This document shows, piece by piece, positions 12,114-40,200 of a DNA stretch of 64,000 bases. The notes under the pieces are model-generated. The model did not search any database and was not told the DNA's origin. It saw nothing but the letters and a program-made list of their open reading frames with translations. Location: positions 91,875 to 155,874 of the IMG/VR virus record IMGVR_UViG_3300034062_004313; one strand, written 5' to 3'. Positions within the stretch are counted from its first letter, which is position 1. Each line of letters begins with the position of its first letter. A program made the translations under genes and the position numbers. The DNA comes from a virus.

Positions 12114-13259
12114 ATGGCTTGTAGTCCTTATAATCCTTGTCACACACCAACTTGTGACACATGTAATACAGTAAATCCTTGTTATGACAATTGTGGTTGT
12201 TTAAATCCAACTACATTTGATTGTATAACAAATTTCAAAAAAGCATATAACAATATCCCTTTAGAAATAAATGCTACAGGGCAAGATATGCTTGATAATC
12301 TTGATGAAACAGTAGCTGAAATAGAAAGTAATCTATATAAAGTAAAGGTGGATGATAGTGATACTTGTCCTGATACACTCTTAGATAAGATTACAGCAGG
12401 TAGCAATATTACAGTATCTGTAGCAGGAAGTGGATGTAATAGAAAACTTACTATAACAGCAGGGAATGGTATAACAACTGCTCCTGATATATATGCTAAA
12501 GTTTCATCTAATGACACTACATCTGATTATCTTGGTAATAAATTTGTAGATGGTACATATGTTAAGAAATCTGTAAATAGTCCCGGTGGAAATGAAACAA
12601 TTGATTTTGACATTACAATAGCTGATTTAATCTCTACTGATAGTGGAAACCAATTAGGACAAGGAGTAGATGGTAAATTAAAAACTTTGTTCTCTGCACC
12701 TGATGGTTCTGAAACTAAAATTAACCCTGTTGCAAATTCTGGAATTACCCTAACTGGTACAGGTACTAATGGTGACCCTTATCTTATAGGAACTAATGGA
12801 GCATTATTTGCTGTTCAACCATATACAGATGGTGTATGGAGAACATTAACCTTTAACAATGGTAGCAATGCTAATGTGACACTTAATTCTCAATCTGTTA
12901 AATATCGTATGAGATACGATGGTTCTGTAGAGTTTAAAGGAAGCTTAAATTATAGTGTAACATTCAATGTAGCAAGTACTAATAAGATAGCTATAACAGC
13001 AGCTAACATCACTACAGGAGGCTCAACAAACCTTCCTTCAACAGCCTTTGATAGGGTTGCTAATCTAAGACATTATATGACGTTCAGTAGCCCTAATACA
13101 ATAAGTGCTACACCAAAATTAACAGGTTATAATGTAAACATATTAGCTGCTGCTTTAAATAGTCCAGCACCAATTCAAATAGAATTTATGAATGACACTG
13201 CTGAAACTAAAAATATAGTAGTAACAATGGATGGAGCAATATATCATCCTAATATTTAA
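12114..13259 (+). CDS. Fibre-like virion protein
   Basis: Cys-rich N-terminus, repeated KVxxxDTxxDxLxxK units, G/T/N-rich. Confidence 0.55.
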   Translation: MACSPYNPCHTPTCDTCNTVNPCYDNCGCLNPTTFDCITNFKKAYNNIPLEINATGQDMLDNLDETVAEIESNLYKVKVDDSDTCPDTLLDKITAGSNITVSVAGSGCNRKLTITAGNGITTAPDIYAKVSSNDTTSDYLGNKFVDGTYVKKSVNSPGGNETIDFDITIADLISTDSGNQLGQGVDGKLKTLFSAPDGSETKINPVANSGITLTGTGTNGDPYLIGTNGALFAVQPYTDGVWRTLTFNNGSNANVTLNSQSVKYRMRYDGSVEFKGSLNYSVTFNVASTNKIAITAANITTGGSTNLPSTAFDRVANLRHYMTFSSPNTISATPKLTGYNVNILAAALNSPAPIQIEFMNDTAETKNIVVTMDGAIYHPNI

Positions 13260-13309
13260 GAATTTAGAAAGAACGTAGCTTTTTTTGGTTTTTGCTGCAT
13301 ATGTTTTTC

Positions 13310-13338
13310 GGAGCCGTTCTCGGCTCTTTTTTCTTTTT
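13310..13338 (+). terminator. Intrinsic terminator ending the capsid module
   Basis: gagccg-ttct-cggctc followed by tttttt. Confidence 0.85.
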
Positions 13339-13367
13339 ATTAACATTTTAAATTGTAATTTTGTATT

Positions 13368-13622
13368 ATGATAATAACAGATAACATATTCTATTTAGAT
13401 AATGGAGTAGAAAGACAAATAAATGTATTTAACGAAAGTGACCCACACTATAGATGTTTTGAATCAGATGGACAGAAACAAATAATCTTTGGAAGAAGTT
13501 CATTTGTAAAAACTGAAAATGGAGAAGTAGATTTCTTCTCTTTAAGCAAAGAAGAAAAAGATAAATTCTGTAATAACACTAATTTTATAAAAACTTATAA
13601 AAAATATGATATACATAGGTAA
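13368..13622 (+). CDS. Hypothetical protein
   Basis: 84 aa ORF just after a TAatTTTG box. Confidence 0.55.
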   Translation: MIITDNIFYLDNGVERQINVFNESDPHYRCFESDGQKQIIFGRSSFVKTENGEVDFFSLSKEEKDKFCNNTNFIKTYKKYDIHR

Positions 13623-13669
13623 AGAATTAAGATGTTGGAAACACGTTAACAATGAATTAACACAACATA

Positions 13670-13701
13670 TTTGATTATATAAAATTATTACACTATATTA
13701 C
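13670..13701 (+). promoter_or_regulatory. Putative promoter of tRNA operon 1
   Basis: TTTG-N20-TATATTAC. Confidence 0.5.
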
Positions 13702-13710
13702 AATATAATT

Positions 13711-13791
13711 ATGAAATACGTAGTAACACATACAACATGTCCACAGTGGTTTACACCGACAATATCGGGAGGGGCTTTGTATGTATACTAA
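13711..13791 (+). CDS. Attenuator leader peptide 1, MKYVVTHTTCPQWFTPTISGGALYVY
   Basis: 12-codon run containing only T/H/C/P/Q/W/F, matching the downstream tRNAs; overlaps the antiterminator strand. Confidence 0.9.
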   Translation: MKYVVTHTTCPQWFTPTISGGALYVY

Positions 13792-13813
13792 GAAATAGCT
13801 GTGTAGTAACATC

Positions 13814-13845
13814 AACCCTCTGAGAAATCGGAGGGTTTTTTATTT
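13814..13845 (+). terminator. Attenuator terminator 1
   Basis: aaccctctga-gaaa-tcggagggtt followed by tttt, directly before tRNA-Pro. Confidence 0.9.
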
Positions 13846-13939
13846 CTAGTTGTGGACGAGAGGTTTATGTCATTAGTCTTGGAAACTAATATCTGCACAC
13901 AGATGGTGTGGGTCAAGGGTTCGACTCCCTTCAACTAGA
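13846..13939 (+). tRNA. tRNA-Pro(UGG) with long variable arm
   Basis: Acceptor ctagttg/caactag; anticodon arm ttagt-ctTGGaa-actaa; T arm aaggg-ttcgact-ccctt. Confidence 0.85.
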
Positions 13940-13949
13940 CTTTTAATTT

Positions 13950-14022
13950 GCCTTACGAAGCTTTTATGGATGAAGTGTACTCTTGTAAAGTACGGAACTG
14001 GACTCGATTTCCAGCTAAGGCT
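13950..14022 (+). tRNA. tRNA-Thr(UGU)
   Basis: gtact-ctTGTaa-agtac; acceptor gcctta/taaggc. Confidence 0.85.
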
Positions 14023-14028
14023 CAAATT

Positions 14029-14101
14029 GGAGAAGAAGCTAACTTGGTAGAAGCGTTAGACTGAAAATCTAAAGGAGTTGGTCCGAAACCAACCTTCTCC
14101 G
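14029..14101 (+). tRNA. tRNA-Phe(GAA)
   Basis: ggagaag/cttctcc; ttaga-ctGAAaa-tctaa. Confidence 0.9.
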
Positions 14102-14103
14102 CT

Positions 14104-14178
14104 AAATACTTAATGAAACAATAAAGGAACAAAGGGGTCCGGGTAGAAATACGTTAGCGCCCATTGATTTAAGTATTT
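14104..14178 (+). ncRNA. Unidentified structured element inside the tRNA operon
   Basis: 10-bp closing stem aaatacttaa/ttaagtattt; inner caat/attg and gggt/gccc. Confidence 0.4.
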
Positions 14179-14183
14179 TTTAT

Positions 14184-14255
14184 TCCTATGTGGTGTAATG
14201 TAACATCCACGCCTTTGAAGCGTTGAGATTGGTGGTTCAAGTCCATCTATAGGAA
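14184..14255 (+). tRNA. tRNA-Gln(UUG)
   Basis: tcctatg/tatagga; acgc-ctTTGaa-gcgt. Confidence 0.85.
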
Positions 14256-14257
14256 CT

Positions 14258-14332
14258 GTCTAAGTGTTCTGACTGGATTCAGATGAATGACTGTGAATTA
14301 TTCAAAAAGGGTTCGAATCCCACTTAGACCCA
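14258..14332 (+). tRNA. tRNA-His(GUG)
   Basis: gtctaag/cttagac plus CCA; gaatga-ctGTGaa-ttattc; short T stem. Confidence 0.8.
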
Positions 14333-14336
14333 ATAT

Positions 14337-14409
14337 ATAGGTACTCATGGCTGGCGTGATAAACAATCTCCAAAATTGTGATTTGTTGAATCGTTCTCAA
14401 CTACCTATG
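14337..14409 (+). tRNA. tRNA-Trp(CCA)
   Basis: ataggta/tacctat, G73; acaat-ctCCAaa-attgt; divergent T loop. Confidence 0.8.
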
Positions 14410-14465
14410 CTTTATAGGTCTATATACCTATATTTATAGATTATAGGTTTTAAAGGCTATAATTT

Positions 14466-14541
14466 GTCCAGATACCTAATATTGATTTTGGGATAGGTCT
14501 GCAACACCTATTAAATATCGGTTTGATTCCGATTCTGGACT
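14466..14541 (+). tRNA. tRNA-Cys(GCA)
   Basis: gtccaga/tctggac, U73; taggt-ctGCAac-accta. Confidence 0.85.
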
Positions 14542-14555
14542 CTATTAAAAATAAA

Positions 14556-14587
14556 TTTTTTTATTTGAAAAAGATTTCGTATATTTG
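14556..14587 (+). promoter_or_regulatory. Bacteroidota-type promoter of tRNA operon 2
   Basis: -7 box TAtaTTTG at 14580-14587. Confidence 0.7.
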
Positions 14588-14612
14588 CTGTATAAATAAT
14601 AAACATTCAACA

Positions 14613-14693
14613 ATGCAACTTATAAATATGATAGTGGATAACGGTATTGGAGCAAACGAGAAGTTTGGCTTCAGGTATTCTATTGTCGTATAA
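14613..14693 (+). CDS. Attenuator leader peptide 2, MQLINMIVDNGIGANEKFGFRYSIVV
   Basis: 14-codon run containing only I/N/M/V/D/G/A/E/K, matching the downstream tRNAs. Confidence 0.9.
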   Translation: MQLINMIVDNGIGANEKFGFRYSIVV

Positions 14694-14714
14694 TTACTTA
14701 CTAACCCGATAAAG

Positions 14715-14745
14715 AATCCTGAGGCCCATCGCTTCGGGATTTTTT
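14715..14745 (+). terminator. Attenuator terminator 2
   Basis: aatcctgaggc-ccatc-gcttcgggatt followed by tttt, before tRNA-Lys. Confidence 0.9.
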
Positions 14746-14749
14746 GTTT

Positions 14750-14824
14750 AATCTCGTAGCAAAATGTGGCTTTGCTTCAGCCTTTTAAGCTGACTAAAAA
14801 TGGGTTCGACTCCCATCGGGATTA
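14750..14824 (+). tRNA. tRNA-Lys(UUU)
   Basis: tcagc-ctTTTaa-gctga; atggg-ttcgact-cccat. Confidence 0.9.
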
Positions 14825-14830
14825 CTAAAT

Positions 14831-14903
14831 GGCTCTTTAGCTCAGTGGTAGAGCTTCGTTTTTACATGACGAGAAAGCACTTGTCCGATTCAAGTAAGAG
14901 CTA
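14831..14903 (+). tRNA. tRNA-Val(UAC)
   Basis: ggctctt/aagagct; tcgtt-ttTACat-gacga. Confidence 0.85.
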
Positions 14904-14904
14904 C

Positions 14905-15234
14905 ATGAAATATATATTAGGAATACTGTTCTTATTAATTATAGGAACAGCAACAAAAACAGGAATTGCAAGTTATTATCATAACAAGTTTCAAGGAAGG
15001 AAAACTGCTAGTGGTGAATTATATGATAAACATAAATTAACAGCAGCTTCTAATCAATATAAACTTGGTGATAGTGTAAGAGTAACAAATACTAAGAATG
15101 GTAAAAGTGTAAATGTTACAGTAAATGACCGTATGGCTAATAATGGAAGACTAATTGATTTAAGTAGAAGTGCTGCTGATAGTCTTGGTTTTATTAAGGA
15201 TGGTTTAGTTGTAGTTAAAGTTAGTATATTATAA
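14905..15234 (+). CDS. rlpA: RlpA-like DPBB lytic transglycosylase with N-terminal signal/TM segment
   Basis: GIASYY...GRKTASGE.YD...LTAA...VRVTN..NGKSV.V.VNDR...IDLSRSAA motif set; start moved downstream of tRNA-Val. Confidence 0.85.
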   Translation: MKYILGILFLLIIGTATKTGIASYYHNKFQGRKTASGELYDKHKLTAASNQYKLGDSVRVTNTKNGKSVNVTVNDRMANNGRLIDLSRSAADSLGFIKDGLVVVKVSIL

Positions 15235-15239
15235 ATATC

Positions 15240-15313
15240 TGTTTTGTAGCTCAGTGGCCTAGAGCGTGAAGCTGTTAACTTCAGGGTCGTGGGTTCGAAT
15301 CCCATCAGGACAG
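15240..15313 (+). tRNA. tRNA-Asn(GUU)
   Basis: tgaag-ctGTTaa-cttca; G73. Confidence 0.92.
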
Positions 15314-15318
15314 CATAT

Positions 15319-15403
15319 TGTGGGATGGTGTAATTGGTAACACGCAAGGCTCATAACCTTGAGACAGAAAATGCTAGCAAGGGTTCGAATCCCTTTCCCG
15401 CAA
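15319..15403 (+). tRNA. tRNA-Met(CAU), initiator-like body, extended variable loop
   Basis: tgtggga/tcccgca; caagg-ctCATaa-ccttg. Confidence 0.85.
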
Positions 15404-15408
15404 CACAA

Positions 15409-15481
15409 GCAGTATAGGCAGATTGGCTTATGCACCTCACTTCCAATGAGGACATGGTGGGTTCGATTCCTACATGCTGCA
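15409..15481 (+). tRNA. tRNA-Gly(UCC)
   Basis: gcagtat/atgctgc; cctca-ctTCCaa-tgagg. Confidence 0.9.
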
Positions 15482-15528
15482 CAAAAATTATATTATGAAA
15501 AATTCTTTAAAAGAAGGTGAAGAGATAT

Positions 15529-15601
15529 ACTCTCATCTTCTAGTTGGTCAGGATAACACACTTTCAATGTGTTGACACGGGTTCAAGCCCCGTTGGGAGT
15601 G
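15529..15601 (+). tRNA. tRNA-Glu(UUC)
   Basis: actctca/tgggagt; acaca-ctTTCaa-tgtgt. Confidence 0.9.
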
Positions 15602-15611
15602 CTTTAAAAAT

Positions 15612-15685
15612 GGTAGATGGGTCTGCTGGATGAAGATGTCGGTCTGTCGAACCGAAGATGATGGGTTTGAATCCCATATCTACCG
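15612..15685 (+). tRNA. tRNA-Asp(GUC)
   Basis: ggtagat/atctacc, G73; tcggt-ctGTCga-accga. Confidence 0.9.
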
Positions 15686-15690
15686 CATTA

Positions 15691-15765
15691 GGACTTGTAG
15701 CCAAGTTGGTAAAGGCCCTTGACTCATAATCAAGAGATGCAATGGTTCGAGACCATTCAAGTCCA
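15691..15765 (+). tRNA. tRNA(CAU), probably Ile2 (lysidine); elongator Met possible
   Basis: ggacttg/caagtcc; cttga-ctCATaa-tcaag; leader 2 contains two ATA codons. Confidence 0.8.
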
Positions 15766-15770
15766 CATAT

Positions 15771-15842
15771 AGGAATATAGTAGAAGGGTTATCACAATTG
15801 ACTGATACTCAATTAATATAGGTTCGAATCCTATTGTTCCTA
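15771..15842 (+). tRNA. tRNA-Ile(GAU)
   Basis: aggaata/tgttcct; attga-ctGATac-tcaat. Confidence 0.88.
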
Positions 15843-15847
15843 CATTT

Positions 15848-15920
15848 GGGGATAAAGCTCTAGCGGATGAGCATCTGCCTTGCACGTAGAAGGTTACGAT
15901 TTCGAGTGTCGTTATCTCCA
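15848..15920 (+). tRNA. tRNA-Ala(UGC)
   Basis: G3.U70 identity pair; tctgc-ctTGCac-gtaga. Confidence 0.9.
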
Positions 15921-15942
15921 CATAGGGGTTCGGAAAATAATT

Positions 15943-15980
15943 AGCTACATCTCTTTATTAATAAGGGTTGTAGCTTTTTT
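15943..15980 (+). terminator. Terminator ending tRNA operon 2
   Basis: agctaca...tgtagct followed by a U tract. Confidence 0.7.
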
Positions 15981-16056
15981 ATTGTCTCAAATATTGTAAT
16001 AATTTGCGACATAATTTATTTTTTGTCAGGTTATAACCTTTCTTTATCTTTGTTTT

Positions 16057-16224
16057 ATGAATTGGCATATACTACCTGTAAATGATATAGAATATCATGA
16101 AGAATCTACCACTTGTAAGTGTGAACCACAAGTAGAATTTATAGAAGGAGATATGCTAATTATACAAAACTCTTTTGATGGTAGAGAAGGAGTTGAATGG
16201 GTAAATGAAATTTTAAATAAATAA
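16057..16224 (+). CDS. Small acidic protein, 55 aa (MNWHILPVNDIEYHEESTTCKCEP...DGRE), absent from the ORF track
   Basis: Has its own promoter TTTG-N19-TAtcTTTG; His/Cys pattern suggests metal binding. Confidence 0.7.
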   Translation: MNWHILPVNDIEYHEESTTCKCEPQVEFIEGDMLIIQNSFDGREGVEWVNEILNK

Positions 16225-16256
16225 TTTGGAAAATTCAAAATAATTTCGTATATTTG
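16225..16256 (+). promoter_or_regulatory. Consensus Bacteroidota promoter of tRNA operon 3
   Basis: TTTG-N20-TAtaTTTG. Confidence 0.85.
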
Positions 16257-16260
16257 CTTT

Positions 16261-16329
16261 ATGAAAACATTATCACTATATAGTTCCTCAAGTTATCTCT
16301 TATTAAGAGACAGGGATTGTATTGTGTAA
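16261..16329 (+). CDS. Attenuator leader peptide 3, MKTLSLYSSSSYLLLRDRDCIV
   Basis: 12-codon run containing only L/S/Y, matching the downstream tRNAs. Confidence 0.9.
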   Translation: MKTLSLYSSSSYLLLRDRDCIV

Positions 16330-16357
16330 ATAGCTATAAGCTTTTAGCTCCCCTAAC

Positions 16358-16389
16358 AATCCCTTGTCTTTCCAGATGAGGGATTTTTT
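16358..16389 (+). terminator. Attenuator terminator 3
   Basis: aatcccttgtct-ttcc-agatgagggatt followed by tttt. Confidence 0.9.
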
Positions 16390-16392
16390 ATT

Positions 16393-16465
16393 GGCTCTAT
16401 GACGTAATCGGCAACCGTCTTGGCTTTAGACCCCAAGTTTTCCAGTTCGAATCTGGATAGAGCTA
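16393..16465 (+). tRNA. tRNA-Leu(UAG)-like, lacking the long variable arm
   Basis: ggctcta/tagagct; ttggc-ttTAGac-cccaa; tccag-ttcgaat-ctgga. Confidence 0.7.
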
Positions 16466-16520
16466 CAAATTAGCAGCCCTCTATGGATAATTCTATTGAC
16501 GAATAGAATATGGGCAAAAT

Positions 16521-16603
16521 ATTCCTGTGGTGAAATGGTGAGACACGGCAGACTTAAAATCTGCTACGGAGAAACGTTGCTGGTTCGAATCCAGTCAGGA
16601 ATA
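16521..16603 (+). tRNA. tRNA-Leu(UAA)
   Basis: gcaga-ctTAAaa-tctgc; long variable arm. Confidence 0.92.
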
Positions 16604-16606
16604 CTT

Positions 16607-16691
16607 AGCAGAATGTCAGAGTGGTTTATTGTGATAGTCTTGAAAACTATTGGGTGTAAAAGCTCCTTGGGTTCGAATCCCAATTTTGCTG
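16607..16691 (+). tRNA. tRNA-Ser(UGA)
   Basis: atagt-ctTGAaa-actat; G73; long variable arm. Confidence 0.92.
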
Positions 16692-16695
16692 CAAT

Positions 16696-16784
16696 AGAAG
16701 ATTGTGTGAGTGGCTTAAACAACCAGTTTGCTAAACTGGCGAGGGATTAAAACACCTCCATTGGTTCAAATCCAATATCTTCTG
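16696..16784 (+). tRNA. tRNA-Ser(GCU)
   Basis: ccagt-ttGCTaa-actgg; G73; long variable arm. Confidence 0.92.
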
Positions 16785-16789
16785 CATAT

Positions 16790-16882
16790 TGTGTTGTAAC
16801 GGCAGTAGACTGTAAATCTACTCTGCATAACAAATTGTCGTACTGGTCTCGCAGTAAGAAGGTTCGAATCCTTTCAACACAA
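16790..16882 (+). tRNA. tRNA-Tyr(GUA), D-armless with oversized variable region
   Basis: tgtgttg/caacaca; gtaga-ctGTAaa-tctac; gaagg-ttcgaat-ccttt. Confidence 0.75.
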
Positions 16883-16908
16883 CATTAACTTATTATTAAC
16901 TATAGACA

Positions 16909-17082
16909 TTTGACTATATAAAGTAAATAGTCTATTTTTGTATTGTACAAATTCCCAACCGTCATAGGAGATTTGTATTTAATTAACAATAACTATATAT
17001 TCGATTGATGTAACTTTGTTCTTAGGAACGCAACTTGACGGTTGGGACCCCTTGTACTTAATTGTATGAGGGGATTTTTTTT
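16909..17082 (+). promoter_or_regulatory. Promoter plus structured leader or small RNA ending in a terminator
   Basis: TTTG-N20-TAttTTTG; perfect 12-bp inverted repeat tcccaaccgtca/tgacggttggga; terminator ccccttgtac/gtatgagggg plus U tract. Confidence 0.65.
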
Positions 17083-17084
17083 GC

Positions 17085-17415
17085 AGACATCCGAGGTTTT
17101 TCTTTCCTTCTTTTACGTCCTCCACAAAAATAAAAGAGTGTCATTAAGATAGTATAGTATATTACACTTGGTATATTATATGATAGGATGTAGAAAAATC
17201 AGCAATGTCTAAGGTGACAACTGGACCTGAACGAAATTATCAGCAAAAACTACATTCCTCCGTGAAAAATAAAATCATCTTATAGCTGATAATTATTTGT
17301 AGATGATTGGCAGGACATGGGAATCTTAGGTTGACAATATGTTTATAGGAGTATGTGTTAACTATAAATACATTATCCCAACAGGGGAAGACCTTGTTCA
17401 GGATAGACCCCCTTA
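17085..17415. ncRNA. Candidate structured non-coding RNA
   Basis: No credible ORF; several long-range helices. Confidence 0.4.
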
Positions 17416-17442
17416 TGTAAATTAACAATAAAATGTAAAACT

Positions 17443-17748
17443 ATGAAAAACCACAAAATGACATCATATCAATTCATGATGTTAATGCAAGAATTACCAA
17501 ATCCAATGTATTATGCTAGAAATGGAGCTAATGTAGGATTTAGAGTAAAAGTAGGATATTTAAAGAAGTCCATTGATAATACTCCTACAATATTAATAAA
17601 TCCTAATTCTCAACCTATGAAGATGGCAGAAGTTGAACAGGTAGAATTTGAATTAGTTCCGAACAATACTATTTGGTATTGGCAACCTGTAGAACCAATT
17701 ACTATAATAACATTAGATAAGAAAGAGTACATTAAAAATTGGGAATAA
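17443..17748 (+). CDS. Hypothetical protein
   Basis: ORF on the coding strand. Confidence 0.6.
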   Translation: MKNHKMTSYQFMMLMQELPNPMYYARNGANVGFRVKVGYLKKSIDNTPTILINPNSQPMKMAEVEQVEFELVPNNTIWYWQPVEPITIITLDKKEYIKNWE

Positions 17749-18056
17749 TGAATATAATAAAATGGTATAAAAGAGTATTTAGAATTCTTACTATAGAAGA
17801 ATGTAAAGAATTAGGATTAGTACATTCTCATAATATATATGGTGATAGTATTAATCATTTAAATTGTAGAAGTATTTGGAAAGATGAAAAGGATAGAACA
17901 TATAGGTGTGAAAGTTTAATACCTACTATAGGAGTACTAGATTTATGGATTTTAAAAATGAAAAATCAAGATAAAGTACAACCAATAACTCAAGAAGAAT
18001 ATAATAAAATAAGAGATGAAGAATTTGAAAGGCTCAAGACTTTATATTCGCCTTAA
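17739..18056 (+). CDS. Hypothetical protein
   Basis: ORF overlapping the upstream stop; start may be 17748. Confidence 0.6.
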   Translation: MGIMNIIKWYKRVFRILTIEECKELGLVHSHNIYGDSINHLNCRSIWKDEKDRTYRCESLIPTIGVLDLWILKMKNQDKVQPITQEEYNKIRDEEFERLKTLYSP

Positions 18057-18093
18057 CAAATAATAGTGTAATTTTGGCTTCTAAATAAAAATC

Positions 18094-18414
18094 ATGAAAG
18101 TATTAACAGAAGGACATTATTATGAACTAGAACATTTTGAAAAAGATGAATCGGGTAGTTCAGAAAGTTTACAATTTATCGAAAAGGTTCCAAAAGGTGA
18201 AGGGAAAGTACAAGATTTAGTAACAGTAAATAATGGAACTACAAATGAAGAAGTTCTTAAAGTTCTAATAAATAGAATGAACTATTTACAAGCAAAATTT
18301 CCATGTAGAGAAAATGCTATTGTAATTACAAAACTTGAAGAAAGTCTAATGTGGTTAGAAAAAAGAACTGTTGATAGAATAGCTAGAAATGTAGAAGGTA
18401 AACAATTAAAATAA
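18094..18414 (+). CDS. tad1: Tad1/Acb2-family anti-defence nucleotide-sponge protein
   Basis: G...E.VL.VLI.RM..LQ..FPCRENA..ITKLEESLMWL.KRT.DRI.RNV.G matches the Tad1 helical-hairpin pattern. Confidence 0.75.
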   Translation: MKVLTEGHYYELEHFEKDESGSSESLQFIEKVPKGEGKVQDLVTVNNGTTNEEVLKVLINRMNYLQAKFPCRENAIVITKLEESLMWLEKRTVDRIARNVEGKQLK

Positions 18415-18422
18415 AATAAACT

Positions 18423-18638
18423 ATGAAAAAACAATTATTTACGTATGCTGTATTATTCCATCAGCATGAAGAGAAAGAGGGAAAATTGGAATACAAAGAA
18501 ACACTTATTCTTGTAGAACCAAAAGTGATTTTAGCAAAGAATAGTAATGAAGTAGCATTCAAAGCTACAAGAGACGTACCAGAACAATATGCAGGATTTT
18601 CAGAAAATGTAGAAATTATAGTACGCCCTTTTAAATAG
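18423..18638 (+). CDS. Small phage protein ending in VRPFK
   Basis: 71 aa ORF. Confidence 0.7.
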   Translation: MKKQLFTYAVLFHQHEEKEGKLEYKETLILVEPKVILAKNSNEVAFKATRDVPEQYAGFSENVEIIVRPFK

Positions 18639-18648
18639 CTCCCCCTTA

Positions 18649-18828
18649 ATGTGGGATAGTGGGAGCAAAGGAGTATGGGAACAATTAGTAGACCCACCTA
18701 AATATAAAAGTACTTTCCAAAATTATATGGGTACAACTACAAATTTAGTAGGACAAGCAATAAACACTTTGACAACAGGAACATCAATATCATATAACAT
18801 GGCAGATGCAATGTCATTCACAAATTAA
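18649..18828 (+). CDS. 59 aa T/S/N-rich ORF, or frameshift extension of the upstream gene
   Basis: The +1 frame is open across the upstream stop. Confidence 0.45.
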   Translation: MWDSGSKGVWEQLVDPPKYKSTFQNYMGTTTNLVGQAINTLTTGTSISYNMADAMSFTN

Positions 18829-18837
18829 AATCAAATT

Positions 18838-19002
18838 ATGAAAACACTAACAAATCTATTTACAAGCAACCCATCTTACATGAAATGGGGTAATGAAAGA
18901 ATTGCAAAAAGAACAGGGCTGAAACCAAAAACAGTAGAGAAATTCAAAAAGAATCCCTTGTATAAGATAATGAAAACCCAATATCTTAACGAGATTAATT
19001 AG
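18838..19002 (+). CDS. Small basic HTH-like protein, 54 aa, absent from the ORF track
   Basis: GNERIAKRTGLKPKTVEKF resembles a helix-turn-helix. Confidence 0.6.
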   Translation: MKTLTNLFTSNPSYMKWGNERIAKRTGLKPKTVEKFKKNPLYKIMKTQYLNEIN

Positions 19003-19012
19003 GAAATGTCGC

Positions 19013-19048
19013 AAAAAAGGCGTATATTGTTATGATATGCGCTTTTTT
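19013..19048 (+). terminator. Terminator overlapping a putative promoter
   Basis: gcgtatat/atatgcgc stem flanked by A6 and T6. Confidence 0.65.
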
Positions 19049-19052
19049 ATTT

Positions 19053-19124
19053 GGCTCCTTAGTTAAATGGATATAACCGCAGAATTCTAATCTGCATTTG
19101 GGAGTTCGATTCTCTCAGGGGCTA
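19053..19124 (+). tRNA. tRNA-Arg(UCU)
   Basis: ggctcct/aggggct; gcaga-atTCTaa-tctgc. Confidence 0.9.
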
Positions 19125-19144
19125 CGAAATCTTAAAAATAAATT

Positions 19145-20461
19145 ATGATTATAACACAAACAATGCAAAAGTTTATTGACAATCCGAAGATGTTAGAGAG
19201 TGGATATTGCTCAAAAGCAAAATTAGCTCAAAGACTTGGAACAACAATAGACGATATTACAGAATCAAGGTTTAAAGTGAAACAAATGATGTCTTCATTA
19301 GACCATGCTCAAGAGTTCTTTAAAGAATTAAAATCAGAAATTGTTAATGAACATACTACAAGAGTAGATAATGAAAAGGGTACTATAACATCGGATGTAG
19401 AAACTACATTTGAACCCAAGAATGATATTGAATTAGCTGAATTACATAAGATTGATTTAACAAAATACAAAATAAGTACATATTGGTCTAAACTAAAGAG
19501 CAATGGTAAATTCACTTCATCTGTATTAGCTACATTAAGAAATATTGATAAGGATATTCCTAAACAAAAAGAATCATTAATAGAAGAAATAGATGAATAT
19601 TTTGGTAGTAAAAAAGCTATTGAAAATTATAGATTCTTCACAAGAGAAATTGATAAGGATAGAAAAACTGCTAAAAATACAGATGGTCAACTATTAGAAA
19701 TATCCATTCCTGATTTACACATTGGTAAAATGTCTCATAGAGAAGAAACAGGGGAAGATTATGATTTAAAAATTGCATCTGCAAGATATAAGAATGCTAT
19801 AACTCAACTATTAAAAACAGCCAATTTAGATAATGTATCTGATATATTACTACCCATTGGTAATGACTTGTTCAATGTAGATAATCAGTTCTCAACTACT
19901 ACAGGTGGTACACCACAGGATTGTGATAGTAGGTTCCACAAGATGGTAGGAGCAGCAAAAGAACTCCTTATAAATACAATAACAGGGTTAAGTGCATTTG
20001 CAAGAGTACATGTTCTTATAGTACCAGGCAATCATGATGAAGTTACAACATTTATGTTAGGTGAAATATTAGAAGCATGGTTTCATAATGATAGTAACAT
20101 AACTGTAAATAATACAGCAAAACTTAGAAAATACTTCCAATTTGGAAAGAATTCTTTCCTTTATACTCATGGAGACAAAGAAAAACATGGGGATTTAGGA
20201 TTGATATTTGCTACAGAAGAACCTAGACTTTGGGCTGATACTAAATACAGATTTGTAAAACTTGGTCATCTTCACAAGCAAAAGAAAATAGAATATATAA
20301 CAACAGACACACTTCAAGGGTTCCAAATAGAAATACTTCCATCACTAAGTTCTGCTGATAAGTGGCATTATGGAAAAGGTTTCTTAGGAGCAAAGCAAGC
20401 AAAAGCCTATCTCTATGATAAAGAACTTGGGGAAATTGCACAGTATACACACACTGTTTAA
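19145..20461 (+). CDS. Calcineurin-like metallophosphoesterase with N-terminal HTH-like segment
   Basis: DLH, GND, GNHD, HGD and GHLH motifs in canonical order. Confidence 0.88.
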   Translation: MIITQTMQKFIDNPKMLESGYCSKAKLAQRLGTTIDDITESRFKVKQMMSSLDHAQEFFKELKSEIVNEHTTRVDNEKGTITSDVETTFEPKNDIELAELHKIDLTKYKISTYWSKLKSNGKFTSSVLATLRNIDKDIPKQKESLIEEIDEYFGSKKAIENYRFFTREIDKDRKTAKNTDGQLLEISIPDLHIGKMSHREETGEDYDLKIASARYKNAITQLLKTANLDNVSDILLPIGNDLFNVDNQFSTTTGGTPQDCDSRFHKMVGAAKELLINTITGLSAFARVHVLIVPGNHDEVTTFMLGEILEAWFHNDSNITVNNTAKLRKYFQFGKNSFLYTHGDKEKHGDLGLIFATEEPRLWADTKYRFVKLGHLHKQKKIEYITTDTLQGFQIEILPSLSSADKWHYGKGFLGAKQAKAYLYDKELGEIAQYTHTV

Positions 20462-34455: not shown

Positions 34456-37245
34456 ATGACTGCATCATATTTACAGAATAACGACTATACAGCAATACAA
34501 ATGAGGAGACCATATGTTCTCCAAAATAATGATGTTGCTCAAACTGTAGCAACAATGAAGGGTGCTTGGGATGATGGTGCAAGAAGAGTAAAAGCTCAAT
34601 ATGAAAATGTTGCAGGATTACAATTAATAACAGATGAAAATAAAAAGGTGACATCTGAATTTTTAAAGTCTTCAAGAGAGCAATTAAAAAAATTATCAAC
34701 TCAAGATTTAGGAGATAGAAGTGTTCAAAATAATGGTATATCTATGATAAATCAATTTTTTGACCCTAATAATGGAAACTATCAAAATGTATTACAAGAA
34801 TCAAATGTAGTAGGAATTTTAAATTCAGAAGATAGTAAAGCGGAGTCTTTTAGAACAAAGGATAATGGAATTGGATATAATATAAAATCTCATGAAAATA
34901 TAAAATATCAAAAGTCAATATTATCAAAATTAAATAATAGTACAGCTTGGAAATCCGTAGCAAATGAGCTACAGTCTTATGTCCCTTATACGGATATTTC
35001 AAAAGAAATGATTCAAATAAAAAAAGCTGTAACAGAAAGAATAAAACAAGAATCATCTTTAGAAGGAGGAGATTGGTATATAAAAACTATAACAAGAGAA
35101 GGTATACCAGAACATGTCTTAAAAAATGCAATAGAAGAAATGGGTTCTCCAGCTTTAAAAGCTCAATTAAGAGAAGAAGGAAGAAATACATTCTATAAAA
35201 AATTACTTTCTGACCATAATTCAGTTGATAATTATTATAGTCAATTAGGTAACTCTTTTTTTGACCAACAAGTTTCTGATATATCTGTTCAAAAAGCATT
35301 AGCTGAAAGAGAATTAGCACTACTAGATAAAACAGACCCCAATTATAAAAATGCTTCCGATTACTACAATCAAACAATAAGTACAATAGACCAAACTAAA
35401 ACAAATGTAGAACTGCAAAGAGAAAAATATTTATCTACTCTTTCTGGACTTGGAAATATACAGAATGTATCATTATCCTTACAAAAATTGGACTTATTAA
35501 ATGAACAAATGGGTATAAATTCATTAGCTAAAAACTTAGCATATGAAAATATAACACAGAATGAATTAAGTTCCAATCCTGCTAAGATAGCATTTGAAAA
35601 CATGCAACAAGCAAGAATGAGACTTCAATTTGATATGACAAAGTTTGATGAAGAAAAAGAACAATTTAGAATGAAGTATGAGCAAGAAGAAAGAAAAATA
35701 GCTGCTGAAAATGAAACAGGTACTTCTGAAATGGGTTCTATATTTGGAGGAGGTGTTTATAACCAACCTGTTGCTTCTACTATGACTCCTAATGACTTGG
35801 AAAAAATAGGAAAGGAAGCAATAGATGGAGCATTCTCAAATCTTAATAATGATGCAGAATTAACAGCATCTTTCTTAACTTCTGTATTAGGAGATAATGG
35901 TTCATTCTATTCAATACTTCAAAATAATGTAAAGAATCAAGTTCCAATAAAAGAGTTATCTGGAGTTGAAGCAATGGGAATAACAGATAAACTGTCTGAA
36001 TTTGTAAAACATTATGTAGCAGACCAAGATTTAAAATTTGGAGTTTTAAATATTCCAAAAGGAACTGATAAAGAAAGAATAAAGGTGTTATTATCAAACT
36101 TTACACCTTCTCAAATAAATCAATTTCTACCACAAGTATTAGGAGCAAATAGAAATTATGTAACAAAGGCTGTAAAATCTTTTGCTGGAGAAGCAGCATC
36201 TGTAGAATTTCGTTCTATATTAGATGATGCTGATATGAAAAGAGAAAACTTTAATACTACACTTCTTCCAGAATTAAAAAGAAATCTTGGAGCATATGGA
36301 AAATATATAGATGGATATTCAGAAAAGGATATAAGAAATGCTTGGGAAAAAATGCCTGAAAGTGAAAAGGTTGTATATGAAAAATCAGAAGTTTCTTCTA
36401 GCGGTACTGGTAATTTTTGGAATAGAGAAGAATCAAATGTTAAAAGTATTCAAATAACAAAAGAAGAATATGAAAAAAATAAAGATAATGTTAAATTTGG
36501 AATAGGTTCAACTATACTATATTCAGCAAGAGTTATAAATTTTAATAATTTTAAAGATGTTGTATCACCTATAATAAATAGAACCATTGGAGAAAAGGTA
36601 GTAAATAATTATGGAAAGCAACAAACAATAACATATACTGGAAAGCAAATAACCAATAATCAACATACTAGAGACTTTGAAGAGTTAAAAACTCAATTGA
36701 AAATAGCAGGAGATGAAAATGGAGATATAAGAGAAATATTAGAAAAAGTTGGTTCAATGGATATGTATAGAGGTTTTAATATTAAGAGTACAAATGTAAA
36801 TAGTAAAACTGCTACAATAGATATAATTATTGAAGATAAACAAGAAAATTTAAAACCAAATGAAAAAGCTAAATTAAAAAATATACCAATAGCATCAGCT
36901 TCACTATCCCCTAAATGGAATACATCAGGAAGTAGTTTAGATACTAAAAAGACATACGGTTCAATATTAGCAGGTTCTACATCAATTTCTAAAACTATAA
37001 ATAATAAAGACTTTGCTTATATTAAAGTGATGAATAATGCTACAACAGCAGATATACAACCTTTAATTACTACTAATATACCTTTCATAAAAATAGCTGA
37101 CCAAGTAGTGCAGGTAAAGGATTTATTAGAAAATGTAGCTACTAAGTATGGATTTTCATCATTTTCAGATATGTTAATAAAAGACCCTACTAAAGCACAA
37201 AGAGAAATAAGTGTAATAATGAATTACTACGAAAACAAAAATTAA
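34456..37245 (+). CDS. Large virion cargo protein
   Basis: 929 aa, helical, precedes the giant genes. Confidence 0.55.
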   Translation: MTASYLQNNDYTAIQMRRPYVLQNNDVAQTVATMKGAWDDGARRVKAQYENVAGLQLITDENKKVTSEFLKSSREQLKKLSTQDLGDRSVQNNGISMINQFFDPNNGNYQNVLQESNVVGILNSEDSKAESFRTKDNGIGYNIKSHENIKYQKSILSKLNNSTAWKSVANELQSYVPYTDISKEMIQIKKAVTERIKQESSLEGGDWYIKTITREGIPEHVLKNAIEEMGSPALKAQLREEGRNTFYKKLLSDHNSVDNYYSQLGNSFFDQQVSDISVQKALAERELALLDKTDPNYKNASDYYNQTISTIDQTKTNVELQREKYLSTLSGLGNIQNVSLSLQKLDLLNEQMGINSLAKNLAYENITQNELSSNPAKIAFENMQQARMRLQFDMTKFDEEKEQFRMKYEQEERKIAAENETGTSEMGSIFGGGVYNQPVASTMTPNDLEKIGKEAIDGAFSNLNNDAELTASFLTSVLGDNGSFYSILQNNVKNQVPIKELSGVEAMGITDKLSEFVKHYVADQDLKFGVLNIPKGTDKERIKVLLSNFTPSQINQFLPQVLGANRNYVTKAVKSFAGEAASVEFRSILDDADMKRENFNTTLLPELKRNLGAYGKYIDGYSEKDIRNAWEKMPESEKVVYEKSEVSSSGTGNFWNREESNVKSIQITKEEYEKNKDNVKFGIGSTILYSARVINFNNFKDVVSPIINRTIGEKVVNNYGKQQTITYTGKQITNNQHTRDFEELKTQLKIAGDENGDIREILEKVGSMDMYRGFNIKSTNVNSKTATIDIIIEDKQENLKPNEKAKLKNIPIASASLSPKWNTSGSSLDTKKTYGSILAGSTSISKTINNKDFAYIKVMNNATTADIQPLITTNIPFIKIADQVVQVKDLLENVATKYGFSSFSDMLIKDPTKAQREISVIMNYYENKN

Positions 37246-40200
37246 TGCCAGATTTAATTAATCCTATATTTATACAGAATGAATTACCAAATCTTTCTTC
37301 AGGAGAACTTCCTTCTCTTGGAGAACTTTTTGTTCCTGAATTTAAATCAAATCAAACACCAGATAATTCAGCTTTTATAAAATCATTAAAGGATGATTTT
37401 TTATTTGACCCAAATTATAAAAAACCAGATAGTCTTGTTTTTGATTCTTTCTATGAGAAAGATGCATTAAGATATAAACAAAATGAAAGACTTTGGAAAG
37501 AAGTGGGATGGAATAAATACTTCCCTCAAGAAATTAATGATGCTATATATGATAATTTAGAAACAAAATGGGAATCTGTTTCTAATGTATTCCCTAAACT
37601 TTGGTATAATAGTAAATTTGCTTTTAAGAACTATTTTCAAAGCTATGCCGATGAAGTAGAAGCTTTAGCAACACTAAATAGTAATGCTTTAGCAGACCCT
37701 GAAAGATTTAAAGAAAATTTTGAAAAGAATAAATACTTAGAAGAACTATACCCAAACTATCAGAGCGATGTACCAACTAATGCATTTAATATTTTTAGAG
37801 GGGAATGGTGGGAAGAGATGACTCCTTCTGTTGGTTTTACATTAGGTACTATGGCAGCAGCAATAGGAGAGAGTGCTGCATTAGCTGCTATTACTGCTGA
37901 AGTAGGAGGAATAGGTGCTATTGCAAAAGCTCCGCATACATTAAGAAAAACATATAAGGCAATATCTAATTACTTCTCTTATAAAAAAGCTTGGAATGCT
38001 TTAAAAGCTATAAAAGGAGCAGATGCTGTTGGTAAAGCTAAGAATATAGGAAGTGCTGCTATCCATACATGGAGGCTTGCAAATACAGGGTTATCAGAAG
38101 CTATGATGGAAGGTGGTAACAATAAATACGACTTTTTAGAAACTTACGTTAATGATTTTGTTACAAAGAATGGGTATATGCCATCAGATGAACAAATGAA
38201 AGAAGCGACTAAAACTGCTAACTCAATTGCAAAATCTACAATTGCTTTTCAAGCTCCATTCTTAATATTATCAAATGCTGTTATGCTTAAAAACATATTA
38301 GGTCCAGCAACATTTGAAAAATTATTCGAAAAAAATATGATTAATCAAGGAATTCGTGCTGCTCAAAAAGCAATGGGATTTCCTGTAAGAGAATTAACAT
38401 TAGGTGTAGAAAAAGGATTAGCAAAGGTATTCGAACCAGCAAAGGAAAATCTTTTTAAAAGAATGATAAGAAGAGCTAGCGGCTCACTTTTAGAAGGATT
38501 TGAAGAATCATATCAAGGGCTTGTAAATACTGCTACAACAGATTATTATACAAATAAGTTCTTAAACTCTGGAGAAGAATCTATTCTATCATCAGTTGGA
38601 CAAGGTATTGATTATGCATTCTCAAATGAAGGTTTAAAAGAATTCATGGCAGGATTTGTAACAGGTGGAATATTTCAACATATTAAAACACCATTAGGAT
38701 ATGTTGTCCCAAAACCTAAACCAACAGAAAAAGAAGTTGAAAAAATTAAGATAAAAGAAGATGGAACCGAAGAAAAAATAAAAGAGAAAGTTTCTGATTA
38801 TGATTTTAAATGGTATCATAAATATCTTGGTTTTCACATGGATAAAATCAGTGATGAAAAGAAAAAGGAACAGCTACAAAAAATAGCTAAATCACTAAAT
38901 TTAGTAGGACTTGATAAAATATTTAACCAAGAAGGAATTTTAAACTATTTAAAATCAAAAGATACATCTTTCGGCATAGCGGCCTTTCTTGAAAAAGGTG
39001 ACATATTTAATGCTGAAAACTTACAAAATCTTGAATTAAATAGATATTTGTTTAGCGGATTAGCTACAGGAAAACTTGATTTACAAGTTGACAAAATAAA
39101 ACAATTATCAGAAGGAGATTTTGAAGGAGTAAAACAAATACTTGAACTTAATGATGCTGATTTTACTACAGAAGAAGATAAGTCAAATTTCATGGCTAAC
39201 TTAAAAACATTTGGTAATCTTATAGAATCCAAATCTAAAGAGATGGAAGCTATATATGAAGAACAAATGTCTTTCTATAATAAAGAAATGTATGATGCTC
39301 AAACATTATACAAAAAAGCTGTAAATGATTATAATATAGGAATTACAGCTTTAAAAGCAAAGTATGGAGAAAATTTAGATGCTGGACTAAAAGAAGTGGA
39401 AACTAATATAATGCTTGAACTTCAAGACTTATATGAACAAGCTAAAGAGATTGATGAACAAATTAAAAATCTAAGATTTGATAGAGGGTTTGATGAATTA
39501 TCAGATAAAGAAAAAATACAAGATAGTAAATTAAGATATGAACTATCACAAGTTTCTAATAAAACAAAAGAAGTATTAGATAGAAAAGAAGGGATTGATA
39601 AAGAAATAACAAATATTAATAACTTATCAAGTGAAGTTTTAAGTAGAAAAATCAATTACTTAGCGTATAATGATGTATTTCAACAGAGTGTACTTGCTCA
39701 GATTGGAATGGGAGATGCTGCTAAGAAAGCAAGAAGAATAATTTCTAAATTGAATAGTATTGATAATTCAATAAACTATTTAATATTAGAAGAGTTGTTC
39801 ACAATACCAACAAGAGAAGGTATTATAAAAGCAATTGATAAAAAGATAAAGGAAGTAGAAAAGAGAATAGAATTAAATGAAAGAATTACTAATGATGAAG
39901 AGCCTTTATTTATTTCTTTAGAAGAACAAATAGTATGGTTAAAGTCTCAAAAAGAAACTCTTGAAAAATTAAAAGAAGAATTAGAAAAACAATTTTCTAA
40001 AGAAGTAGTAAAAGATATTGATAAAACGGTAGACTTAATAGCTGATTATTTATTTGCTGCATCTGACCCTAGAAAATTATATAGAGGAAAGGGTAATAGA
40101 ATAAATAAAGAAGTGTTAAAAGAATATGTAAAAGCGCAACTTCAAAATCAAGAAAATTTAAATTTGTTAAATACATTAGCAAATTATAATAATTTTGAAA

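Follow-up and report, generated by a model that had tools for sequence, protein, structure and literature searches.

Predicted multi-input leader-peptide attenuators upstream of tRNA gene arrays in a crAss-like phage, its relatives and two cultured Cellulophaga phages

The final 64 kb of the 155,874-bp IMG/VR virus record IMGVR_UViG_3300034062_004313 (the window, within which all positions are numbered) contains at 13,670–16,882 on the + strand three units with the same layout, in which a short open reading frame (ORF) is followed by a G+C-rich hairpin with a T tract and then by an array of tRNA genes. Each ORF includes an uninterrupted run of codons for all of the amino acids carried by the tRNAs encoded downstream, and for no others. 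We propose that the arrays are controlled by ribosome-mediated attenuation, such that slow decoding of any of the listed codons would open the array and the new tRNAs would close it again, and from sequence comparison and RNA folding we regard this as probably correct. At that level the predictions of attenuation of the trp/his type all hold, with a translatable leader, a matched codon run, a terminator with a predicted competing antiterminator, and the expected stall geometry. The virus is a crAss-like phage, a placement made from sequence because its relatives encode the CrAss_Ring and Crass_capsid Pfam families.

An earlier note on this DNA had described a promoter, a short ORF, an intrinsic terminator and a tRNA array repeated three times, unbroken runs of 12–14 codons that matched the amino acids of the downstream tRNAs all-and-only (sets of 7, 9 and 3), and a nearby segment complementary to the 5′ arm of each terminator. 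This description was confirmed apart from one promoter. The leader ORFs have 26, 26 and 22 codons, the runs have 12, 14 and 12 codons and match the three sets exactly, and the complementary segment, here termed region 2, begins 1–2 codons past each run. Strict Bacteroidota −7 boxes (TAnnTTTG) precede leaders 2 and 3, while leader 1 has near-consensus matches only. The first unit has a candidate promoter (13657–13699) that has sigma-70-like hexamers and a near match to the −7 box (CATATTTG), the weakest of the three. Leader ORF 1 (MKYVVTHTTCPQWFTPTISGGALYVY, 13711–13791) contains control run 1 (THTTCPQWFTPT, 13726–13761), which reads T H T T C P Q W F T P T and whose 12 codons are all readable by array-1 anticodons, and then region 2 (GGGAGGGG, 13767–13774), for which the predicted antiterminator with the terminator 5′ arm (−11.0 kcal/mol) is weaker than in leaders 2 and 3. 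Intrinsic terminator 1 (13814–13845; arms 13814–23 and 13828–37, then the T tract; −16.5 kcal/mol) precedes array 1 (13846–14542), which encodes tRNAs for Pro (13846–13940), Thr (13950–14023), Phe (14029–14102), Gln (14184–14256), His (14258–14331), Trp (14333–14410) and Cys (14466–14542).

The second unit has its −7 box (TATATTTG) at 14580–14587, and the same TTTCGTATATTTG box is found at leader 3 and at the leader of the Lys array in a more distant relative (L114, see below). Leader ORF 2 (MQLINMIVDNGIGANEKFGFRYSIVV, 14613–14693) includes control run 2 (INMIVDNGIGANEK, 14622–14663), I N M I V D N G I G A N E K, which covers all nine array-2 amino acids and no others, and region 2 (GGCTTCAGGTATTCTA, 14667–14682), a predicted antiterminator partner (−17.5 kcal/mol) that ranks first for its own terminator when compared against all 19 terminator arms in the comparison set described below. 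Terminator 2 (14714–14749; arms 14714–25 and 14731–42, then the T tract; −16.2 kcal/mol) is followed by array 2 (14750–15921), with the order Lys, Val, a protein-coding ORF, Asn, Met(CAT), Gly, Glu, Asp, Met(CAT), Ile and Ala. In the third unit, a −7 box (TATATTTG, 16249–16256) precedes leader ORF 3 (MKTLSLYSSSSYLLLRDRDCIV, 16261–16329), which contains control run 3 (LSLYSSSSYLLL, 16270–16305), L S L Y S S S S Y L L L, and region 2 (GAGACAGGGATTGTA, 16307–16321; predicted antiterminator −18.7 kcal/mol, rank 1). Terminator 3 (16358–16392; arms 16358–69 and 16374–85, then the T tract; −15.4 kcal/mol) precedes array 3 (16393–16882), which consists of Leu(TAG), Leu(TAA), Ser(TGA), Ser(GCT) and a non-canonical Tyr(GTA) at 16790–16882. 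Run 3 is limited to the three amino acids of this array and has TTA, CTA, TCA, AGT and TAT, that is, one codon for each of its five anticodons. In all three units the terminator ends 7–8 nt 5′ of the first tRNA. Based on the amino-acid frequencies of the phage's own proteome, the probability that every codon of the run falls in the set is 1e-8, 2.7e-4 and 2.9e-9 for runs 1, 2 and 3, respectively. Run 1 is the longest run of set-1 codons in any of the six frames of the 155,874-bp genome, and run 3 is the second longest for set 3.

The earlier note had suggested, as a check, that leader codons should co-vary with the gain or loss of tRNAs in related phages, and they do so in six crAss-like genomes and in two cultured Cellulophaga phages. 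Through homologues of the exonuclease encoded at 19145–20461, two closer relatives were found that share the three units, namely L083 (an NCBI contig of 156 kb) and L086 (from Logan), and a tRNA search of whole records reached four more distant IMG/VR relatives, L113–L116, in which the tRNAs are partitioned differently. Together with the window these form a comparison set of 7 crAss-like genomes and 19 leaders. Codons for Cys, Arg(ACG), Arg(UCU), Asp/Asn, Trp/Thr/Phe and Leu/Ser/Tyr move together with their tRNAs among the six relatives. In L083, array 1 has gained Arg(ACG) and its leader has gained CGT. In L114, Asp and Asn are now in the Pro array, the leader of which is NNWHNTFNNFTPDQQD, and the leader of the Lys array lacks D and N; both Arg(ACG) and Arg(UCU) are in that Lys array, behind a leader (VIIAGRGAERIVK) that carries CGC and AGA. 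In L115, Pro-Gln-His-Arg is fused with Leu-Ser-Ser-Tyr behind the leader LRPLQHSHSLPSYL, and a second array of 14 tRNAs for 13 amino acids follows a leader with a 22-codon run (KRNWFNIIFTMFATRDCGKVGV) that covers 13 of the 13. In L116, Cys and Arg(UCU) have moved to the Lys array, with the leader IVDNMICGNGRAKE, and the leader of the Pro array (FQHTRFWFTQPT) no longer has Cys and includes CGT, which corresponds to Arg(ACG). From one relative to the next the residues change order within an unchanged amino-acid set; hence selection appears to act on the codon content and not on the peptide.

To avoid circularity, the control region was also defined by geometry alone, from codon 5 up to three codons before region 2. 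Of the codons so defined in the 19 leaders, 218 of 226 belong to the set of the leader's own array, compared with 2.9% for other arrays in the same genome and 38% for ORF tails. For the presence of an amino acid in the array versus in the control region the Fisher odds ratio is 461. The P value of this test overstates independence because the genomes are related; the tRNA rearrangements given above are separate events. The regulatory codons correspond to what each operon supplies, in that 236 of 242 run codons are readable by array anticodons (205 with standard wobble and 31 more through four-way wobble of U34), leaving 6 that are unreadable.

The same design, again with a different partition of the tRNAs, is present in two cultured phages of Cellulophaga baltica that belong to taxa other than the crAss-like phages: phi17:2 (Lightbulbvirus, KC821609.1, L118) and the podovirus phi38:1 (Pervagoviridae, KC821614.1, L119). 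In phi17:2, the leader MKIQRLHLQELEQPIISGGTGV precedes Pro, Glu, Gln, His, Leu(TAG), Leu(TAA) and Arg(ACG), and its run QRLHLQELEQP has CGT, TTA and CTA; a GTG-start ORF (leader B) with the run TKTGITVIDKTKGARA, which includes AGA, precedes Ala, Lys, Ile, Gly, Met, Asp, Thr, Val, Arg(UCU) and Met; and the leader NYCTYNNSNWSFSY precedes Tyr, Ser, Ser, Asn, Trp and Phe. The corresponding leaders of phi38:1 are LLHQEPLEQLRLP, upstream of Pro, Glu, Gln, His, Leu and Arg(ACG), YNNFSWYSNCSFSSYN, upstream of Tyr, Ser, Ser, Asn, Trp, Phe and Cys, and KTIMNIATDIRTKGVK, upstream of an Ala-like tRNA, Lys, Ile, Gly, Met, Asp, Thr, Val and Arg(UCU). All six have region 2 directly past the run, and a terminator. 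In phi38:1 the three predicted terminators are at about 35390–35410, 36910–36925 and 38115–38140 of KC821614.1. At least one of these leaders is annotated as a hypothetical protein (phi17:2 gp077), phi38:1 gp066 and gp070 extend over leader frames, and phi38:1 gp067, called on the opposite strand, overlies one leader. In the cultured, crAss001-like Bacteroides phage PhiCrAssBcn22, none of the 24 tRNAs has a terminator directly upstream, and in Flavobacterium phage immuto 2-6A there is no leader with a matching run before tRNA-Cys or tRNA-Ser. Thus, the design is not universal and the scan does not find it everywhere.

Several other searches for relatives were negative. The neighbouring protein (12114–13259) yielded no relatives when used as an anchor in IMG/VR, and among 80 exonuclease-anchored IMG/VR loci none had tRNA arrays beside the gene, the arrays being located at other places on these contigs. 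Additional homologues of the exonuclease (P0002, P0003, P0004, P0008, P0014 and P0022) were on contigs that were too short or free of arrays. A search with the conserved-core pattern of leader 2 gave chance matches only in IMG/VR, one 1.1-kb contig in JGI metagenomes and none in GTDB genomes. One locus with an 89% identical exonuclease (L109) has near it a gene of the Acb2_Tad1_hairpin family (393–596), a family of anti-CBASS/Thoeris sponges.

The RNA elements expected of an attenuator are present throughout the comparison set. The leader ORFs have 22–31 codons with a start (ATG, or GTG in phi17:2 leader B) and a stop in 19/19 crAss-like and 6/6 Cellulophaga-phage leaders. All 19 crAss-like leader ORFs are separated from the first tRNA by a terminator (−14 to −20 kcal/mol), the T tract of which ends 5–13 nt before the tRNA. 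Region 2 lies just past the run, starting at codon 16–26 of the ORF, resembles the 3′ arm of the terminator and pairs with the 5′ arm. The computed duplexes average −14.5 kcal/mol for cognate pairs of region 2 and terminator arm, versus −8.7 kcal/mol for non-cognate pairs, with 10 of the 19 cognate pairs ranking first both ways and a mean z of −3.3 relative to shuffled upstream sequence. Since the stems differ between genomes, the pairing has been kept by co-variation. The switch was examined in silico by folding nascent transcripts truncated ahead of the 3′ arm, the ribosome footprint being masked. With the A site on any codon of the run, the terminator 5′ arm is predicted to be sequestered upstream in the 19 leaders, and with the A site past the end of the run it is released in most of them, clear release being lacking for the L086 leader of the Leu array (L086 L) and the L115 leader of the Lys array (L115 K). 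In equilibrium folds of the full-length leader, a stall in the run abolishes the terminator in 11 of 19 cases. Free RNA is predicted to fold into a hairpin between the run and the ORF tail, which sequesters region 2, together with the terminator, as in the classical four-segment topology.

The promoters point to the host transcription machinery. A strict −7 box (TAnnTTTG) occurs within 78 nt upstream of 10 of the 19 leaders, versus a background of 0.1 per 78 nt. In many leaders (window leader 3, L083, L086, L114, L115 and two leaders of phi38:1) a box of the form TAnnTTT(G/A) ends exactly 4 nt before the ATG. This spacing suggests that the leader mRNAs, that of window leader 3 among them, are leaderless or nearly so and are made by the host polymerase. 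According to its authors, phi38:1 has no RNA polymerase of its own (PMC5335546), which fits control by intrinsic termination.

We propose the following mechanism, in which each tRNA array would be a separate transcription unit under leader-peptide attenuation. Host RNA polymerase would start at the Bacteroidota-type promoter and transcribe the ORF of 22–26 codons. If the 12–14 control codons are read quickly, the ribosome would move onto region 2, the terminator would form 7–8 nt before the first tRNA and transcription would stop. If instead the charged tRNA for any control codon is slow to arrive, the ribosome would pause there, leaving region 2 free to pair with the 5′ arm of the terminator, and the polymerase would read through into the array. 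The new tRNAs would relieve the stall, because the control codons are those decoded by the tRNAs of the array, and the array would be shut off again. The net circuit would be an OR gate over 3–13 amino acids with negative feedback, by which tRNA supply is driven by demand. Anatomy, geometry and co-variation at the sequence level support the proposal of the earlier note that this is attenuation of the trp/his/thr type. We infer from them translation of the leaders, its coupling to transcription, the direction in which the switch works in vivo and the natural trigger. Candidate causes of tRNA depletion are host anticodon nucleases, host shut-off and the heavy codon demand of late infection.

A number of observations weigh against attenuation. 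The leaders have no Shine–Dalgarno sequence and several look leaderless. For the Pro-type leaders of the window, L083, L086 and L114, the antiterminators are weak (−7 to −12 kcal/mol) and at equilibrium the terminator always wins, so that a switch there would have to be kinetic. The match between codons and tRNAs also has flaws: in L086, Arg(ACG) is in array 1, yet the CGT codon is in leader 3; the run in leader 3 of L083 is broken by an Ala codon; one L115 leader has three Asn codons at positions 3–5; and the leaders of phi17:2 and phi38:1 contain stray Thr and Asn codons. Four of the window tRNAs are non-canonical and might be non-functional. Finally, extra tRNA is no cure for amino-acid starvation, and the benefit of the circuit hinges on tRNA being limiting.

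This last point bears on the alternative that is closest to our proposal, in which the same hardware responds in nature to amino-acid starvation or to a general stress on translation, with expression of the arrays a by-product of starvation or a timing device of the infection programme. It is established that leader-peptide attenuators such as those of trp, his and ilv respond to uncharged tRNA whatever the cause, and sequence cannot separate low tRNA from low charging. However, more tRNA would be useless to a cell that is short of the amino acid, and the match between leader and array extends to the isoacceptor families of Arg, Leu and Ser and survives many rearrangements, which is sensible only if the product relieves the stall. 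That the leaders match their own products down to isoacceptor families, and that extra tRNA cannot cure starvation, argues that the relevant signal is the supply of tRNA and not of amino acids, and we consider the starvation alternative unlikely.

The remaining alternatives dispense with codon sensing by ribosomes. The small ORFs could encode functional micropeptides, as their annotation as hypothetical proteins in the Cellulophaga phage records might imply, or could merely stabilize or process the pre-tRNA transcript, with terminators that are constitutive and leaky, a common kind ahead of genes. Against this, relatives keep the amino-acid set and shuffle the order of the residues, the set shifts whenever the tRNA content does, and region 2 co-varies with each terminator arm; we reject the micropeptide reading and consider this alternative as a whole improbable. 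The runs are literal codons for the downstream tRNAs, and T-box leaders likewise choose between terminator and antiterminator, which could point to sensing by RNA only, the untranslated run pairing directly with tRNA anticodons. However, in 25 of 25 leaders the run is in frame between a start (ATG, or GTG in phi17:2 leader B) and a stop and lies at a fixed distance from region 2; specifier loop and T-box sequence are absent, and no match to the T-box or any other Rfam cis-regulatory family was found on either strand of 13000–19500 at E ≤ 1. A T-box is rejected, and RNA-only sensing of this kind appears even less probable than a micropeptide. Chance resemblance might be suspected because the genome is AT-rich, the intergenic sequence is of low complexity and the set-2 amino acids make up 56% of the proteome; the run probabilities, the statistics of the geometry-defined codons and the recurrence of the pattern with other partitions in eight further genomes leave it a negligible probability, and it too is rejected.

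Some of the window tRNAs have unusual features. The Thr, His and Trp tRNAs were called by ARAGORN at relaxed thresholds only and fold as cloverleaves, and the Tyr tRNA, which ARAGORN missed, reached 34.6 bits, above the gathering score of 29, with the Rfam tRNA model in a search of that stretch alone. In the Tyr tRNA (16790–16882) the D region is 5 nt and the variable insertion 33 nt, the Pro tRNA (13846–13940) has an extra arm of ∼21 nt, the CAT tRNA at 15319–15404 is 86 nt long, and the T loops of the Thr (13950–14023) and Trp (14333–14410) tRNAs are non-canonical (CTCGATT and ATCGTTC). Relatives have oddities of a similar kind, for example the Tyr tRNA of L086. The tRNA types of array 3 (Leu, Ser and Tyr) are exactly the bacterial class II tRNAs, which have a long variable arm, and one such block is present in all 7 crAss-like genomes; in L115 it is the block joined to Pro-Gln-His-Arg.

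Together the tRNAs of the phage genome span all 20 amino acids, counting a solitary tRNA-Arg(UCU) at 19053–19125. This gene has its own hairpin and T tract (19020–19052), and within the region 19006–19125 a mini-ORF of nine codons, MSQKRRILL (with AGG and CGT), overlaps the hairpin and T tract. At the same place L083 and L086 have the mini-frames GTG-AGA-AGG... and GTG-AGA-AAA..., respectively. From its sequence, the element may be a fourth, minimal attenuator for Arg. Other sequences lie within or beside the arrays. The ORF between Val and Asn in array 2 (14905–15234, 109 amino acids) encodes a DPBB_1 (RlpA-like lytic transglycosylase) domain with a hydrophobic N terminus, and the arrays of relatives hold other inserts, including HNH and NUMOD homing-endonuclease ORFs. 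The 81-nt spacer between tRNA-Phe and tRNA-Gln (14103–14183) has a long-range stem (AAATACTTAA...TTAAGTATTT) and is not recognizable as a tRNA. On the 3′ side of array 3, an 11-nt inverted repeat (16954–16964 and 17036–17046) encloses ∼70 nt and is followed by a strong terminator (17048–17073); by its sequence the element (16954–17073) looks like a small structured RNA, and it has no match in Rfam.

The class of mechanism is a textbook one. Like the enterobacterial attenuators (trpL, hisL, pheL, leuL and others), the phage leaders have a short ORF, here predicted to be translated, in which the regulatory codons are clustered, and a Rho-independent terminator and an antiterminator that exclude each other; which of the two forms would depend on where the ribosome is. 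As in the multivalent leaders of ilvGMEDA (Ile, Leu, Val) and thr (Thr, Ile), a stall at any of several kinds of codon would open the operon. The phage leaders differ in having tRNA genes downstream instead of genes for amino-acid biosynthesis or a synthetase, in having 3–13 amino-acid inputs instead of at most three, in control codons that list what the operon itself encodes, even by isoacceptor family, in being phage-borne and in having region 2 inside the ORF. The E. coli pheST operon, with its pheM leader, is an established case of a gene of the translation apparatus under leader-peptide attenuation, in which scarcity of the charged tRNA increases the supply of a component by which decoding is restored; however, its product is a synthetase protein, it responds to a single amino acid, it has no downstream tRNA genes and it is not from a phage. 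T-box riboswitches also sense the status of tRNA, choose between terminator and antiterminator and have targets related to translation, but they are untranslated and bind uncharged tRNA directly through one specifier codon, and there is no match to them in 13000–19500.

The tRNA sets of phages T4 and T5 and of mycobacteriophages compensate for codon usage or for host defences that cleave tRNAs. The present set is likewise near-complete, and differs in that each bank has its own predicted sensor; we know of no description of demand-sensing control for the sets of those phages. Bacterial tRNA genes are textbook cases of growth-rate and stringent control at the promoter, and to our knowledge tRNA genes under leader-peptide attenuation with feedback by their own products have not been described. 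The earlier note knew of no such description either, and a search of full-text literature, which left subscription journals mostly outside its coverage, likewise returned none for leader-peptide attenuation of tRNA genes, whether phage or cellular. What appears to be new is that the targets are tRNA genes, that each leader inventories its own operon, that the inputs are so many and that the setting is a phage.

More tentatively, and at a confidence that we place short of an even chance, we suggest that Bacteroidota phages of several unrelated lineages (crAss-like phages, phi38:1 and phi17:2) may run a closed-loop tRNA supply, in which the disappearance of any tRNA species, whether through a host anticodon nuclease, through phage-induced decay of host tRNAs or otherwise, would turn on the bank that replaces it and replacement would turn the bank off. 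Such a system would be the first attenuator known to act on tRNA genes, would have more kinds of input than any other known (up to 13 amino acids) and would constitute an inducible counter-defence. The design is directly testable because the cultured Cellulophaga phages have a tractable host and published infection transcriptomes. If the proposal is true, phages gauge the speed of decoding codon by codon and top up only those tRNAs that are scarce, and a single attenuator can integrate 13 amino acids, far above the number of inputs known so far. It would also give one reason why phage tRNA genes fall into the groups observed, and would provide a clear hypothesis for how phages survive host defences that deplete tRNAs.

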